From: Escherichia phage Av-05
Reading direction: 5' to 3' (one strand)
DNA: 64,000 bases
Sequence record: KM190144
Shown: in pieces, positions 49,962-64,000 of the stretch
How positions within the stretch are numbered: the first letter of the stretch is position 1
Layout: each line of letters begins with the position of its first letter
The notes under the pieces: model-generated
Seen by the model: the letters and a program-made list of their open reading frames with translations, nothing else
What the model was told of the DNA's origin: nothing
The model's database searches: none
Translations under genes and position numbers: made by a program

Positions 49962-49991
49962 GTTTACGCTTAAGTATTAATATGGTATAAT
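49962..49991 (+). promoter_or_regulatory. T4-early-type promoter
   Basis: -35 GTTTAC, about 18 nt spacer, -10 TATAAT. Confidence 0.45.
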
Positions 49992-50021: not shown

Positions 50022-50600
50022 ATGAAAACATATAAAGAATTTATCGCCGAGGCCTTTGCAGGAAAAGCTCAAGGCATTAATAAGGACGAGTGGAATTATC
50101 GTGGCGGAAATGGTTTTGACCCTAAAACTGCTCCACTTGAACGATATCTAGCCACAAAAGCTTCTGATTTTAAAGCCTTCGCTTGGGAAGGACTACGCTG
50201 GCGTAACGATCTAAATATTGAAGTTGACGGACTTAAATTTGCTCATATTGAAGATGTTGTTGCTAGTAACTTAGACGCAGCTTTTGTTAAAGCCGACAGT
50301 GACCTTCGTCGCTGGAATTTAAAACTGTTCTCTAAACAAAAAGGCCCGAAGTTTGTGCCTAAAGCAGGTAAATGGGTCATTGATAATAAATTGGCTAAAG
50401 CTGTCAACTACGCTGGTCTTGAATTTGCCAAGCATAAATCATCATGGAAAGGTCTTGATGCAATGACTTTCCGTAAAGAATTTGCCGATGTTATGGCTAA
50501 AGGTGGCTTTAAGGCAGAAATAGATACCTCTAAAGGTACGTTTAAAGACGCTAATGTTCAGTACGCTTACGCCGTCGCTAATGCGGCCCGTGGTAATTAA
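50022..50600 (+). CDS. internal-protein-like protein
   Basis: N-terminus MKTYKEFIAEA matches the T4 capsid-targeting sequence. Confidence 0.5.
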   Translation: MKTYKEFIAEAFAGKAQGINKDEWNYRGGNGFDPKTAPLERYLATKASDFKAFAWEGLRWRNDLNIEVDGLKFAHIEDVVASNLDAAFVKADSDLRRWNLKLFSKQKGPKFVPKAGKWVIDNKLAKAVNYAGLEFAKHKSSWKGLDAMTFRKEFADVMAKGGFKAEIDTSKGTFKDANVQYAYAVANAARGN

Positions 50601-50629
50601 TAAGGCCTATTTACATTTAAAGGAAACAT

Positions 50630-50959
50630 ATGAAAACGTATCAAGAATTTATCACTGAAGTTACATTATCTGCGGAACAGAAAGCTGCTATCGAAGAAGG
50701 TAAAAATCCCAAAGTAACATATAAAGTAAATGGTAAAGGCGTTTTTGATGGCTTGGTTCAAGACCCTGAATTGAAAAAAGCTCTTTCTAAAACTAATGCA
50801 TACTTTGCTCCTAAATTTAACGCAGCTGGTGTACTTATTGGATTGGATGTATTCAACTCTAAAGGTGTTCTATCTAATGCCTTTGGTTATGCCGCTAACA
50901 AAATTACCAAAGCCGCATGGGAATCCAATACCAAACAAGCTCAAAAGCCTAGAGTATAA
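50630..50959 (+). CDS. internal-protein-like protein
   Basis: N-terminus MKTYQEFITEV. Confidence 0.5.
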   Translation: MKTYQEFITEVTLSAEQKAAIEEGKNPKVTYKVNGKGVFDGLVQDPELKKALSKTNAYFAPKFNAAGVLIGLDVFNSKGVLSNAFGYAANKITKAAWESNTKQAQKPRV

Positions 50960-51133
50960 TTCTTGCCTAATAAAGGGAAACGCAACCTCTCCTCATGAAC
51001 GTCGAGTCCTCTGAGTGATGTACCTTTTCCAACCTGTAATAAGGTCGAGCCCAAGTGCGGTAATGGGTTTACATAGCGAGTCGAAGGACCTAACATGTGC
51101 CATGGAATGGCCCCAACCTAAAAGAGAAACTAA

Positions 51134-51673
51134 ATGAGAACATTTTTAACCGGACCTTATCTATCCCTGATGAATGCTTTTACACACCATTCTGATGCTA
51201 GAGTAGAAGAAATTTGTAAGAACGGTTATGCCCCACCATTTGAAGACGTACTCAAGCAGTACTGTACACTTCGTTTAGACGGCGGCAGACAATCAGGTAA
51301 ATCGACCGCAGTAACTAATTTTGCTGTTAATTGGCTGTATGATGGCGGAACAGTTATTGTTCTTTCTAATACTTCAGCTTATTCTAAAATTTCTGCTGGC
51401 AACATTAAAAAAGAATTTTCTCGTTATTCTAGCGACGATATTCGATTCCGTTTATTTACTGATTCTGTTCGTAGTTTTATTGGCAATGAAGGTTCTAAAT
51501 TCCGTGGATTAACGCTTTCTCGTATTCTATACATAATTGACGAGCCTATTAAAGCTCCTGATATGGATAAGATTTACAATGTACATATTAAAACAGTCCA
51601 ACACTGTTGCAAAAGCAAATATTGCAACGGCGGTAATGCTCGTCCTCAATTTTTTGTGATTGGAATGCAATGA
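51134..51673 (+). CDS. P-loop NTPase-like protein
   Basis: Walker A GGRQSGKST and Walker B-like ILYIIDEP. Confidence 0.4.
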   Translation: MRTFLTGPYLSLMNAFTHHSDARVEEICKNGYAPPFEDVLKQYCTLRLDGGRQSGKSTAVTNFAVNWLYDGGTVIVLSNTSAYSKISAGNIKKEFSRYSSDDIRFRLFTDSVRSFIGNEGSKFRGLTLSRILYIIDEPIKAPDMDKIYNVHIKTVQHCCKSKYCNGGNARPQFFVIGMQ

Positions 51674-63450: not shown

Positions 63451-63864
63451 ATAAGAGTAGCGATCTTATCTGAACAAAAAACGACACAATTCACATGGTC
63501 ACAGATAGATTATCTGATATCTCGTCTACGTTCAAACTCTAAATATCCGAGCAGGATGGTTATTTCTTGTAACCCTGATCCAGATCATAAGATCAAGGAG
63601 TTGATTTCTTGGTATTTAGATGATGAGGGATATCCTATACCTGAACGCGATGGGGTGATTAGATGGTTTATAAGACGTGACGGGGAGTTTATCTGGGGTG
63701 AATCAGAGCAAGAATTAATTGAAAAGTATTGGGATGGCAAGGATGAGAAAAGAAAGCCTAAACCACTTTCATTTTCCTTCATTTCCGCAACCATTAAAAG
63801 AATAGTGGCTTCATGCAGTAATGCATGTCGAATAACTTCGTTAATTGCTGGAAACTCTCAATAA
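63442..63864 (+). other. open frame on opposite strand with possible terminase ATPase motif-III-like segment
   Basis: frame open 63442-63864; ...SRMVISCNPDPDH... loosely resembles terminase ATPase motif III; ends with TAA directly before intron-like core. Confidence 0.3.
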
Positions 63865-64000
63865 GAGACAATCAGCAGCGAAGCGTCTATTGACGAACGT
63901 TCAACGACTATCCCGTAAGGGAGTAGAGCGCAAGCTAATGGCGTTCGAAAAGCGAAGCACCCATTATGTGTGGGTGGTGATATAGTCTACTCTGCATGGT
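63865..64000 (+). mobile_element. group I intron-like core on + strand, truncated by window end
   Basis: Q-like caatcagcagcg, R-like cgttcaacgactatcc, S-like gatatagtctac in plus orientation, near-identical to pol intron elements. Confidence 0.5.

Follow-up and report, generated by a model that had tools for sequence, protein, structure and literature searches.

The 174 nucleotides that precede the vs.8 homologue of Escherichia phage Av-05 probably constitute the gene for a structured non-coding RNA, which lies on the + strand. We analysed a 64,000-nucleotide window of this genome (record KM190144), in which the gap between an internal-protein-like open reading frame (ORF) and vs.8 runs from 50960 to 51133. 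The original prediction had drawn these boundaries correctly: the preceding ORF (50630..50959) ends at 50959, and the ATG of the vs.8 homologue is located at 51134. Both flanking genes have the same direction (+) as the structured RNA. The explanation that we favour, and hold to be somewhat likelier than its competitors taken together, is that the gap carries a phage-borne, SroH-like small RNA, i.e. a folded module that probably acts in trans.

Architecture and covariation of the RNA

Conservation and covariation of the gap region across phages are far beyond chance. The core of the RNA (50972-51078) comprises an H-type pseudoknot (P1/PK) around a hairpin, P2, followed by a three-way junction (P3/P4/P5) that sits on the strand joining P1 to the 3′ strand of PK (Table 1). 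Within the core, the motifs CCUGNRAWAAGG, C-N-A and GGUAA are invariant, the last two of them in all copies that were found; the unpaired nucleotides of the junction (C-N-A, GGUAA) and the GNRA-like hexaloop of P4 are essentially invariant.

Table 1. Parts of the proposed RNA and of its 3′ flank in Av-05 (positions in the window).
Feature	Position	Strand	Details
P1, 5′ strand (AAAGG)	50972..50976	+	Pairs with 51023-51027
Pseudoknot, 5′ strand (CGC)	50981..50983	+	Within P1 loop; pairs with 51076-51078
P2, optional hairpin in P1 loop	50990..51018	+	P2a UCCUCA/UGAG(U)GA; P2b GAAC...GUCC; 88.6% of cells paired
P1, 3′ strand (CCUUU)	51023..51027	+	Partner of 50972-50976
P3, 5′ strand (UCC)	51028..51030	+	Closes three-way junction; pairs with 51065-51067
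P4 hairpin (ACCU-GUAAUA-AGGU)	51032..51045	+	GNRA-like hexaloop; 100% of cells paired, 70 sequences
J4/5 (CGA), mini-hairpin P5 (GC-CCAAGU-GC), J5/3 (GGUAAU)	51046..51064	+	Sequence conservation and P5 covariation
P3, 3′ strand (GGG)	51065..51067	+	Partner of 51028-51030
Linker UUUACAUA and pseudoknot, 3′ strand (GCG, 51076-51078)	51068..51078	+	PK pairing by covariation
3′ tail, T4-like phages only	51079..51114	+	ANGGA 51084-51088; hairpin GCCAU-GGA-AUGGC 51099-51111; then CCC
Spacer, weak Shine-Dalgarno, vs.8 start	51115..51136	+	Shine-Dalgarno AGAGAA 51123-51128; in-frame TAA 51131-51133; start codon 51134

Among 70 distinct sequences, 90.2% of cells were paired, compared with 24–43% when the partners were slid, and 14 pairs changed on both sides. 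The covariation score was 0.255 as against 0.087 in shuffles, and none of 500 shuffles reached it. Compensatory changes preserve the fold among phages of different families; they affected all 12 pairs of P1, PK, P3 and P5, plus one pair of P4 (70 distinct homologues). A hand-curated helix table of 31 rows was left out of these statistics because its rows had been built by seeking complementarity. G-U pairs occurred on the + strand only, which fixes the transcribed strand. Two other procedures yielded no information: a window-based search that compared the longest PK helix with shuffles parsed seven of 22 sequences and gave a combined p of 0.2, and RNAalifold recovered no fold from the raw MAFFT alignment of mixed types, in which the types were misregistered.

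Each of the four modelled P1 pairs varies on both sides, with 98.9% of cells paired among the 70 distinct homologues; besides the SroH forms of the helices, which are given below, the variants include AAAGC/GCUUU, GGGAA/UUCCC (T4), GGGAG/CUCCC, GGGG/CCCC, GAAUG/CAUUC and GUGUAU/AUACAC. Likewise, four of four PK pairs change on both sides, with 91% of cells paired in a structure-blind MAFFT alignment (A1), and the same pairs covary in alignment A2, whose model structure excluded the PK columns. The pseudoknot is formed, for instance, by ACAC/GUGU, CCG/CGG, CCUG/CAGG, CUCG/CGAG, CUG/CAG (T4), CCAG/CUGG (rV5-like), GGGU/ACCC, CAAGAA/UUCUUG or CGGAA/UUCCG. P2 is shorter in T4 (CCUCAU/AUGAGG) and WG01 (CCUCAC/GUGAGG), is absent from a family of ∼46-kb contigs, and exhibits a matched deletion at loci L027 and L050, where one base is gone from each strand (CUA/UAG).

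In the junction, P3 has two modelled pairs, each with changes on both sides (CUGG/CCAG, GCC/GGU, ACC/GGU, ACU/AGU, AGCC/GGCU and CAC/GUG). The outer pair of P4 turns from A-U to G-C in three of the 70 sequences, and its loop, found as GUAAUA, GUAAAA, GUGAAA, GUGAUA or GCAAAA, follows the pattern G-N-R-A-W-A. The inner pair of P5 changes from C-G to U-A in five sequences, and this mini-hairpin also occurs as GUC-CGU-GAC and GCC-CGC-GGC. The stretch from J4/5 to J5/3 falls in a 40-nt core that is 97–100% identical between T4-like and rV5-like phages, T4 and WG01 included.

Coding potential, DNA signals and short repeats

The T4 record annotates Vs.8 (216 aa) across the homologous sequence, and the gap of Av-05 itself contains a 40-codon ORF with a GTG start (51015..51137) that overlaps the vs.8 ATG as ATGA, an arrangement typical of translational coupling. 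That the gap is protein-coding, as the N-terminal part of Vs.8 or as this short ORF, is nevertheless extremely improbable. Because a TAA codon stands directly 5′ of the vs.8 ATG (Table 1), an N-terminal extension of Vs.8 is ruled out in Av-05, and only T4 has the 153-nt in-frame extension (0–63 nt elsewhere). No reading frame is conserved: on either strand, a single frame is open in at most 26 of 72 homologues. Moreover, the substitutions are pairwise-compensatory rather than synonymous, and phages of different families share the core as identical DNA.

The gap had originally attracted attention through repeated CCAACCT and GTCGAG motifs and a GTTTAC element, for which a small RNA, a promoter or leader, or the remnant of a mobile element was offered as explanation. 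All these motifs are present (CCAACCT at 51029 and 51113, GTCGAG at 51001 and 51044, GTTTAC at 51067-51072), but not in excess of chance. CCAACCT occurs 11 times in the window, with 7.0 ± 2.7 copies expected, and GTCGAG nine times, with 11.2 expected; by estimate, one repeated 7-mer per 174 nt arises about once by chance. The second CCAACCT is not kept even in the closest relative, mar005P1. A repeat search of the gap found one 12-nt copy at 83% identity and the 7-mer, nothing else, and no inverted repeat. Of the explanations offered, the small RNA is the one that our data support, in the form of a conserved, covarying structured RNA with apparent homology to SroH; since the short repeats are at chance level, this support does not stem from the cues that had suggested it.

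A signal at the DNA level, be it an early promoter of T4 type (GTTTAC) that would serve vs.8 or the decayed remnant of a mobile element, is very unlikely. It could draw on the promoter-like score of GTTTACA-17-TAACAT, on a better GTTTAC-type promoter-like sequence that we read at the equivalent place in BF15, and on the gene upstream of the element, which varies between phages. Yet the Av-05 site matches at only 9 of 12 positions, and seven such sites occur in the region as against 4.9 expected. Neither its -10-like hexamer nor GTTTAC is conserved among relatives, so that TTTACA-17-TAACAT was rejected as a T4-type early promoter: the -10 position reads TAAACA or GAATTA, GTTTAC is missing from T4-type and rV5-type copies, and the T4-type copies read GGGTAAATAC. 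Within the RNA, GTTTAC spans the 3′ end of P3 and the following linker. The linker sequence UUAC is kept as RNA in several lineages, including 24-kb contigs and tandem second copies, and is absent from T4-type and rV5-type copies. Terminal repeats are absent, and purifying selection, accompanied by compensatory changes, acts on the element; both observations speak against a mobile-element remnant; covariation with strand-specific G-U pairs points to RNA. A promoter/terminator scan revealed no terminator-like site in the gap. This lack, together with that of a convincing promoter of its own, counts against the SroH-like RNA that we favour.

Comparison with SroH and other known RNAs

Standard searches failed to recognize the RNA. 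An Rfam 15 scan of the window at gathering thresholds returned only a group I intron (63785-64000); permissive scans (E ≤ 10) of the gap, the T4 copy and a minimal copy gave noise apart from a weak sroH lead; and a scan of eleven diverse loci at E ≤ 1 gave nothing on the RNA. ARAGORN predicted no tRNA or tmRNA gene in the window, and no tRNA/tmRNA match overlapped the RNA in any locus examined. The minimum free energy (MFE) of the single sequence was no better than that of shuffles (z = +1.35 on the + strand and +0.65 on the - strand). Thus, of the checks proposed at the outset, Rfam, a tRNAscan-type search and RNA folding were all negative and, taken alone, would have led us to dismiss the RNA wrongly; single-sequence MFE folding is uninformative on both strands because of the pseudoknot.

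Covariance models indicate that the phage RNA is a distant homologue of E. coli SroH. Since blastn shows no similarity between SroH and the phage RNA in either direction, the homology rests on these models and on manual mapping. Specifically, our first model, R1, gave sroH 22 bits, and model R2, made from phage sequences only, scored it at 34.3 bits with E = 8.4e-7 in 164 kb (∼5e-5 when scaled to the whole E. coli genome, with rough calibration). With the Rfam sroH model (RF00372), which has no annotated structure, the best phage copy (∼46-kb contig type L040) reached 9.5 bits (E = 2) compared with a gathering score of 80, and positions 50500-51600 of the window gave no match at E ≤ 10.

SroH has all of the helices P1, PK, P2, P3, P4 and P5, in the same order as in the phage RNA, and the same invariant nucleotides (ACCU...AGGUC-A-AG...GGUAAUG). 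Assigned by eye, its helices are P1 GGAUG/CAUCC, PK CAGA/UCUG, P2 CUGAA-GAAA-UUCAG, P3 CGC/GCG, P4 ACCU..AGGU and P5 GG..CC, with GGUAAUG as J5/3. In contrast to the phage RNA, SroH has an 11-nt extension hairpin in place of the P4 hexaloop and a flipped inner P5 pair, as well as a terminator hairpin with a U-run, a 5′ leader, an extra 3′ hairpin and a promoter-like site of its own, predicted from sequence. It is a stand-alone unit, whereas the phage gap lacks a terminator and has its 9/12 promoter-like match inside the RNA itself. The loci also differ: sroH lies on the chromosome between yjaZ and thiH (RF00372; b4691), and the Av-05 copy has the internal-protein-like ORF on one side and vs.8 on the other. 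SroH carries an sRNA annotation and is made as a discrete RNA of 161 nt, and no gene follows on its strand; of 5,426 complete E. coli genomes, 3,740 have it as a single copy with ≥ 99% identity. Both full-length and processed forms have been reported (PMC5389530). As SroH is an orphan sRNA, homology to it supplies no mechanism. No bacterial copy was found by blastn of the gap against E. coli genomes or by a core-pattern scan of 100,044 species genomes, both of which missed sroH because its P4 loop differs; seven core-pattern matches in the species genomes were rejected as chance, being apparently coding sequence and devoid of P3.

We also considered other RNAs. T4 rnaC and rnaD (species 1 and 2) resemble the present RNA in being phage-encoded, structured, stable RNAs that travel with tRNA genes, but they have other sequences and folds; R1 and R2 match nothing in the T4 tRNA/rnaC/rnaD region, and in T4 the present RNA is found about 6 kb away, beside vs.8. 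Drum, skipping-rope, GOLLD and ROOL RNAs are associated with tRNAs and phages. The likeness extends to phage genomes, tRNA proximity and complex conserved folds, but no Rfam family matches the phage RNA at permissive thresholds. Mimicry of the 16S rRNA 530 loop, for which C-N-A-[GC..GC]-GGUAAU would have to resemble helix 18, was rejected, as R1, applied unfiltered to the E. coli rrnH operon, had no match at helix 18 (its best scores, 2.9 and 2.5 bits, lay away from it) and R2 was also without match in the rRNA operon. The words shared with twister (CCCAAG loop), tmRNA PK2, the SRP Alu UGUAAU motif, the TPP riboswitch and RNase P were structurally non-equivalent or unconserved. In the literature, including an exact-sequence search, we found no described phage RNA at this site; the supplements of PMC10690425, which publishes a catalogue of 10,006 candidate viral RNAs, are outside this statement.

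As a compact fold that has a pseudoknot and some 20 invariant unpaired nucleotides, the RNA invites comparison with self-cleaving ribozymes or with other processing modules that cut polycistronic transcripts, e.g. tRNA-cluster precursors. The strand order P1-PK-hairpin-P1′-domain-PK′ resembles that of double-pseudoknot ribozymes, the gene contexts are varied, copies sometimes lie in tandem, and in the 360-kb contigs (L056/L082) and L086 the RNA begins 35–50 nt after a tRNA. Theta/HDV-like ribozymes adjoin phage tRNAs (PMC10879173), and the processed SroH forms (PMC5389530) would suit such an activity. However, we consider a ribozyme or processing module unlikely. No known ribozyme family matches, and despite the similar strand order the mapping onto HDV-like/theta ribozymes fails: there is no 3-bp P3 with L3 abutting P1, the hairpin in P3 position having 5–6 bp or being absent, and the J4/2-equivalent linker (UUUACAUA, AAAUA or nothing) has no conserved C. 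Furthermore, full-length SroH of 161 nt accumulates in E. coli, and in these clusters the spacing of the tRNAs already suits cleavage by RNase P and RNase E.

Genomic context and possible function

By blastn of the gap, the core is present in about 1,075 phage records. Its carriers include T4-like and rV5-like phages, a Klebsiella phage of N4-like type, a Pseudomonas phage of 151 kb, and metagenomic contigs, among them some of 360 kb. Outside the T4-like phages, the RNA lies in or beside tRNA clusters, on the tRNA strand; in the N4-like Klebsiella and the Pseudomonas phages the stem halves that flank tRNAs also enclose the RNA, and in rV5-like phages it is situated between two sigma-70-like promoters, one of which matches at 11 of 12 positions. 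Tandem copies occur, including upstream of vs.8 in Karamvirus-like genomes. No Vs.8 homologue was found near the RNA in 30 loci of phages that are not T4-like, and a linkage to Vs.8 outside the T4-like group was rejected. Because BF15-type Tequatroviruses lack the core, it is dispensable, at least in some hosts, and this too weighs against the reading that we favour.

Copies in T4-like phages carry a 3′ tail that is absent from all others and contains AAGGA (51084-51088) and AUGGA (51102-51106), the latter in the loop of GCCAU..AUGGC. Both ANGGA motifs, with variable N, occur in 30 distinct T4-like sequences at a spacing of 17–19 nt, which is exactly 18 nt in 25 of the 30; at a distance of 18 nt, two sites are best bridged by a single CsrA dimer. 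The tail is kept in BF15 (without the core) and in L033 (with a different downstream gene). Its stem flips from GCCAU/AUGGC to GGCAU/AUGCC in CHI14, although support for the helix is weak. Judged by its sequence, the tail looks like a dual CsrA-type binding site, having the features of a CsrA target (two or more A(N)GGA motifs 10–63 nt apart, at least one of them in a hairpin loop). It resembles CsrA/RsmA-binding leaders and sponge RNAs in that two A(N)GGA motifs are 18 nt apart and the second sits in the loop of a short hairpin, but differs in that only two sites are present and neither overlaps the Shine-Dalgarno sequence.

This arrangement bears on the leader option of the original prediction, which survives as a minority alternative for the T4-like phages only. 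A cis-acting 5′ leader of vs.8 would comprise the core as an aptamer or protein-binding operator (riboswitch-like) and the ANGGA tail as the expression platform for vs.8 and the following genes. In all T4-like genera examined, the vs.8 start comes immediately after the element, the second GGA is 24–32 nt from the AUG, and the tandem copies of Karamvirus-like genomes resemble tandem riboswitches. T4-like phages also use RNA pseudoknots as translational operators, as in the gene 32 mRNA. We nonetheless regard a leader as doubtful, because the same core occurs without a nearby Vs.8 homologue in other phages, where tRNAs or a strong promoter follow, and because SroH ends in a terminator with no following gene on its strand. 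L033 keeps the RNA though its downstream gene is replaced, and BF15 keeps vs.8 without the core; within the tail, neither ANGGA overlaps the Shine-Dalgarno sequence and no terminator/antiterminator alternative is evident. As for the T4-like position directly 5′ of vs.8, it fits a leader equally well and in that respect counts against the reading that we prefer.

According to this preferred reading, an SroH-like small RNA, the phage RNA would work as a self-contained folded module, like SroH, and not through DNA or a protein product. In Av-05, it would probably be co-transcribed with the upstream internal-protein genes from a promoter-like site at 49963-49991 and would then either stay 5′ of the vs.8 message or be cut out. 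Its invariant junction may bind a conserved host factor; as the RNA accompanies tRNA clusters in other phages, this partner may belong to the machinery of translation or tRNA handling. The tail of the T4-like copies may couple the RNA module to vs.8 expression.

More speculatively, and with a small chance of being right, SroH-like RNAs could form an unrecognised catalytic or factor-binding class that E. coli has in common with many lytic phages. The pseudoknot would hold the invariant GGUAA/C-N-A junction in place, either for cleaving RNA or for contact with some part of the tRNA or translation machinery, and the phage copies in tRNA islands would take over or replace the function of host SroH in infection. 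In RNase P, the tRNA 3′-ACC end is bound by the GGU of loop L15, and under a factor-binding or catalytic reading the same end is a possible partner here.

These results give a feature to a part of T4-like genomes where annotation is otherwise lacking or, in T4, shows the N-terminus of Vs.8, and they place the same RNA module in several unrelated phage families, usually inside tRNA islands. If the homology holds, the orphan SroH gains a structure supported by covariation, a pseudoknot with a three-way junction, and an extensive set of relatives in phages. What SroH and the small stable phage RNAs do, a question since the description of T4 species 1 and 2, would thereby become testable through host–phage comparison, BF15-type deletions and compensatory mutants.

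A covarying RNA fold in the gap upstream of vs.8

The gap at 50960-51133 is bounded by a 109-codon ORF on its left and the homologue of T4 vs.8 on its right, all genes around it run left to right, and 1.1 kb around it is 100% identical to the reverse strand of phage phiC120 (Mosigvirus, KY703222). Its G+C content is 46.6%, against 39.7% for the window (94th percentile among 174-nt windows), and no terminator was found in it. The original prediction had singled out this gap for repeated short motifs and a GTTTAC element. The latter is present, at 51067, and the repeats are real (CCAACCT at 51029 and 51113, GTCGAG at 51001 and 51044), but neither word is enriched in the window (11 occurrences versus 7.0 expected, and 9 versus 11.2, respectively). 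The only direct repeats in the gap are a 12-mer (83% identity) and a 7-mer, and the second CCAACCT is not retained in the nearest relative. Of the checks proposed, a single-sequence fold was uninformative (z = +1.35 on the + strand, +0.65 on the - strand), ARAGORN called no tRNA, and no Rfam family matched the gap even at E ≤ 10; on these alone, the finding would have been thrown out.

Paired changes are visible, however, when the copies are read side by side. When 17 long-type copies were aligned with MAFFT without structural information, six helices were supported: pairing holds in 93.6% of cells, compared with 24-45% after sliding of the 3' partners, and all four pairs of the pseudoknot (PK) show changes on both sides. 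R1, a covariance model from this alignment, located a single copy in the window (50970-51088, 131.6 bits) and recovered every other locus, with only ∼15 bits for two chance controls (loci L058 and L062). Among 70 distinct sequences gathered via R1, 90.2% of cells are paired, 14 pairs show changes on both sides, and the covariation score is 0.255 versus 0.087 in shuffles, a value reached by none of 500. P1 is 98.9% paired with 4/4 pairs covarying, covariation extends to P3, P4 and P5, and the PK columns, which lie outside R1's structure, yet again show both-side changes in 4/4 pairs. Because of its G-U pairs, the RNA is assigned to the + strand. One lineage lacks P2 and T4 has only a short one, so the minimal unit is ∼70 nt.

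Features of the gap, its surroundings and E. coli sroH (coordinates of P1, PK, P2, P3, P4 and P5 verified)
Feature	Position	Strand or direction	Remarks
Sigma-70-like promoter	49963-49991		TTTACG-17-TATAAT; TG before -10; upstream of internal head protein gene
109-codon ORF	50630-50959	left to right	phrog_3966; 'internal virion protein' in NC_055718
P1	50972-76 with 51023-27	+	
PK	50981-83 with 51076-78	+	
P2	50990-51018	+	
P3	51028-30 with 51065-67	+	
P4	51032-45	+	G-N-R-A-W-A hexaloop
J4/5		+	CGA
P5	51049-58	+	
J5/3		+	GGUAAU
T4 vs.8 homologue	51134-51673	left to right	phrog_1488; annotated unknown function
sroH	4190327-4190487	minus	E. coli K-12, between yjaZ and thiH

No conserved reading frame was found on either strand, none being open in more than 26 of the 72 homologues, and in phiC120 a TAA directly precedes the vs.8 ATG. 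A 40-codon GTG ORF (51015-51137) has an ATGA overlap with the vs.8 start that resembles translational coupling, but its frame is unconserved in the homologues. Coding and promoter readings of the gap, the latter raised in the original prediction, are effectively excluded. In T4, the annotated Vs.8 is 216 aa long and extends across the RNA from a start 26 nt after denV (locus L003, 1487-2137; MT984581, 64242-64892). The in-frame extension is 153 nt in T4 only and 0-63 nt in relatives, so this start is probably mis-set; the conserved start is MRTFLTG, giving ∼179 aa. Alternative starts, ORF 64.0 and 64.0(1), were already given in the old record X04567.

Kinship with E. coli SroH

The useful lead was an sroH alignment at 9.5 bits, returned when a minimal copy was scanned against Rfam at permissive thresholds. 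R1 scored 22 bits on E. coli K-12 sroH, and R2, a model rebuilt from the 70 phage sequences only, scored 34.3 bits (E = 8.4e-7 in 164 kb, or, with rough calibration, ∼5e-5 scaled to the genome); R2 had no match in an rRNA operon or the T4 tRNA region. By eye, SroH has every element of the phage RNA: P1 (GGAUG/CAUCC), PK (CAGA/UCUG), P2 (CUGAA-GAAA-UUCAG), P3 (CGC/GCG), P4 (ACCU..AGGU, with a hairpin in place of the phage hexaloop), J4/5 (CAA), P5 (GG..CC, inner pair flipped) and J5/3 (GGUAAUG), followed by an extra hairpin and then a terminator. Searched by blastn, sroH showed no similarity to phages. As the phage element lies below the Rfam membership threshold for sroH and passes the reciprocal structural test, we file it as a variant of the SroH kind rather than a curated member.

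The sroH gene is single-copy, with at least 99% identity, in 3,740 of 5,426 complete E. coli genomes. It is missing from ∼31% of them and nearly invariant where present (locus L095, 1828-1988), and occurs at five places on plasmids. That a structured RNA has all its relatives in lytic phages suggests horizontal acquisition. Treated as uncharacterised in the literature searched, SroH is patchily distributed in E. coli (PMC3318445) and of unknown function; its deletion is sensitive to envelope stress, and polyadenylation is seen on the full-length RNA as well as on processed forms (PMC5389530). In vitro, SroH binds kbl mRNA (PMC6172242), and it is enriched in Hfq PAR-CLIP (bioRxiv 10.1101/2020.06.29.178624).

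The strand order of the phage element resembles that of HDV-like ribozymes. Their defining P3/L3 and catalytic C are missing, however, so this identity was rejected. Self-cleavage of the RNA is considered unlikely. T4 rnaC and rnaD are different RNAs. Twister, tmRNA PK2, TPP, SRP Alu and RNase P share only word-level likeness at non-equivalent positions, and a likeness of C-N-A-[GC..GC]-GGUAAU to the 16S 530 loop was unsupported when tested on the E. coli rrnH operon. Separately, the window's 63785-64000 matches the group I intron family RF00028 (71.2 bits, E = 4e-16), cut by the window end.

Distribution and genomic setting

A blastn search with the gap matched 1,075 phage records. Across the T4-like genera examined (Tequatrovirus, including T4, Mosigvirus, Dhakavirus, Jiaodavirus, Karamvirus, Winklervirus, Kanagawavirus, Gelderlandvirus and Tegunavirus), the element lies directly upstream of a vs.8 homologue regardless of the preceding gene, as a vs.8 leader would. 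Outside T4-like phages, by contrast, no Vs.8 homologue was found near it, and we consider a leader function unlikely. The vs.8 homologue of ESCO10 (L006) bears a probably spurious 'GnsA/GnsB toxin' label, and the genes beside it are given unrelated names.

Over a 40-nt core (51029-51068), WG01 and the otherwise unrelated rV5-like Vequintaviruses show 97-100% identity. Pattern scans yielded 41 further IMG/VR and 27 metagenome loci, and blastn from a metagenomic copy led to the N4-like Klebsiella phage KpCHEMY26 and the 151-kb Pseudomonas phage PsgM04F. Among 100,044 species genomes of bacteria and archaea, none held a genuine match to the core pattern; seven hits were apparently coding, lacked P3 and equalled the chance expectation. 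Divergent tandem second copies, with a shortened P2 and a P5 of GCC-CGC-GGC or GUC-CGC-GAC, follow the first within 15-30 nt (L021 9101-9196; L028 5076-5170; L078 443-538; L035, whose second copy was missed by the model; L051/L084, with two copies). Two antisense 'hypothetical protein' ORFs over the PsgM04F RNA (L092, 2508-2826) are probably spurious.

T4-like copies share a 3' tail (51079-51114) that is missing in other lineages. In 30 distinct T4-like sequences it carries two A-N-GGA motifs (N variable) 17-19 nt apart, exactly 18 in 25/30, the second in a GCCAU..AUGGC loop 24-32 nt before the AUG. For these putative sites, recognized by sequence only, such spacing matches the preferred geometry for a CsrA dimer bridging two sites. 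In the Tequatrovirus BF15, the tail is kept with vs.8 and the core is lost; a GTTTAC-type early-promoter-like sequence plus TTGGAGG replaces the core up to P3 (L015, 912-1052), and this phage could act as a ready-made deletion control. In locus L033, the tail is kept with the RNA though the downstream gene differs.

Outside T4-like phages, the element shares its strand with the tRNAs. It is located ∼600 nt upstream of the tRNA cluster in rV5-like phages, 200-400 nt upstream of tRNA-Arg/Met in a family of ∼46-kb contigs, between tRNAs in 24-kb contigs and PsgM04F, 35-50 nt past a tRNA in the 360-kb contigs L056/L082 and in L086, and 1 kb past the cluster in KpCHEMY26. A long stem (GUGCUCUU..GUUGUG / CACAAC..GUAAGAGCA) encloses it in KpCHEMY26, PsgM04F and the ∼46-kb family; the halves of this stem recur around neighbouring units, one directly 3' of a tRNA, and these shared halves indicate that the element is packaged like tRNAs. 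The halves, GUGCUCUU(U/A)UCGUUGUG ... CACAAC..ACAG(G/A)UAAGAGCA, flank the motif, neighbouring units and at least one tRNA (loci L093 2920-3240, L092 2430-2700, L038-L040, L045, L068-L071, L080). The arrangement resembles an array of distinct RNA modules presented in a shared precursor stem, which perhaps serves RNase III-type processing.

In the rV5-like CarlMeissner, the element has a promoter-like site on each side, at 2320-2348 and at 2617-2645 (the second matching 11/12 positions). A repeat, CCC(U/A)UAGAGGGCUUGA(U/A)AGUGC, flanks the RNA on either side in rV5-like phages and their 130-kb relations (L004 2425-2465; L088/L089 flanks); as a sigma-70 promoter it was rejected, its TTGATA-12-TAAAAT spacing being too short. 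The unannotated 1-kb gap after the tRNA cluster of KpCHEMY26 (Schitoviridae; L093, 3400-3640) holds, besides the motif, a tmRNA-like tag frame, GCA AAC GAT GAT GTT GTT CTG ATG GCT GCT TAA (ANDDVVLMAA*), preceded by a T-arm-like TTAGGTTCAACTCCTAAACCA. This region scored 33.7 bits with Rfam tmRNA_permuted (gathering 47), gave no ARAGORN call, and may be a two-piece phage tmRNA. In the tRNA-rich metagenomic contig L075, an abiF RNA motif (RF03085; 220-251; 45 bits, gathering 37) precedes the SroH-like element by ∼2.2 kb.

Collectively, the covariation and the SroH match support the small RNA among the original suggestions: a genuine RNA under strong constraint, related to SroH and carried by phages, lies in the gap. 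No paper on the phage element or its sequence turned up in the literature searches, and its pseudoknot and three-way-junction fold and wide phage distribution appear undescribed so far. The contexts outside T4-like phages argue for a self-contained RNA over a regulator of one gene. Considering that SroH is annotated as a stand-alone sRNA with a terminator-ended sequence, together with the tRNA-island context and the independence from the downstream gene, we infer that this folded, self-contained RNA most likely acts on a conserved host factor by way of its invariant junction.
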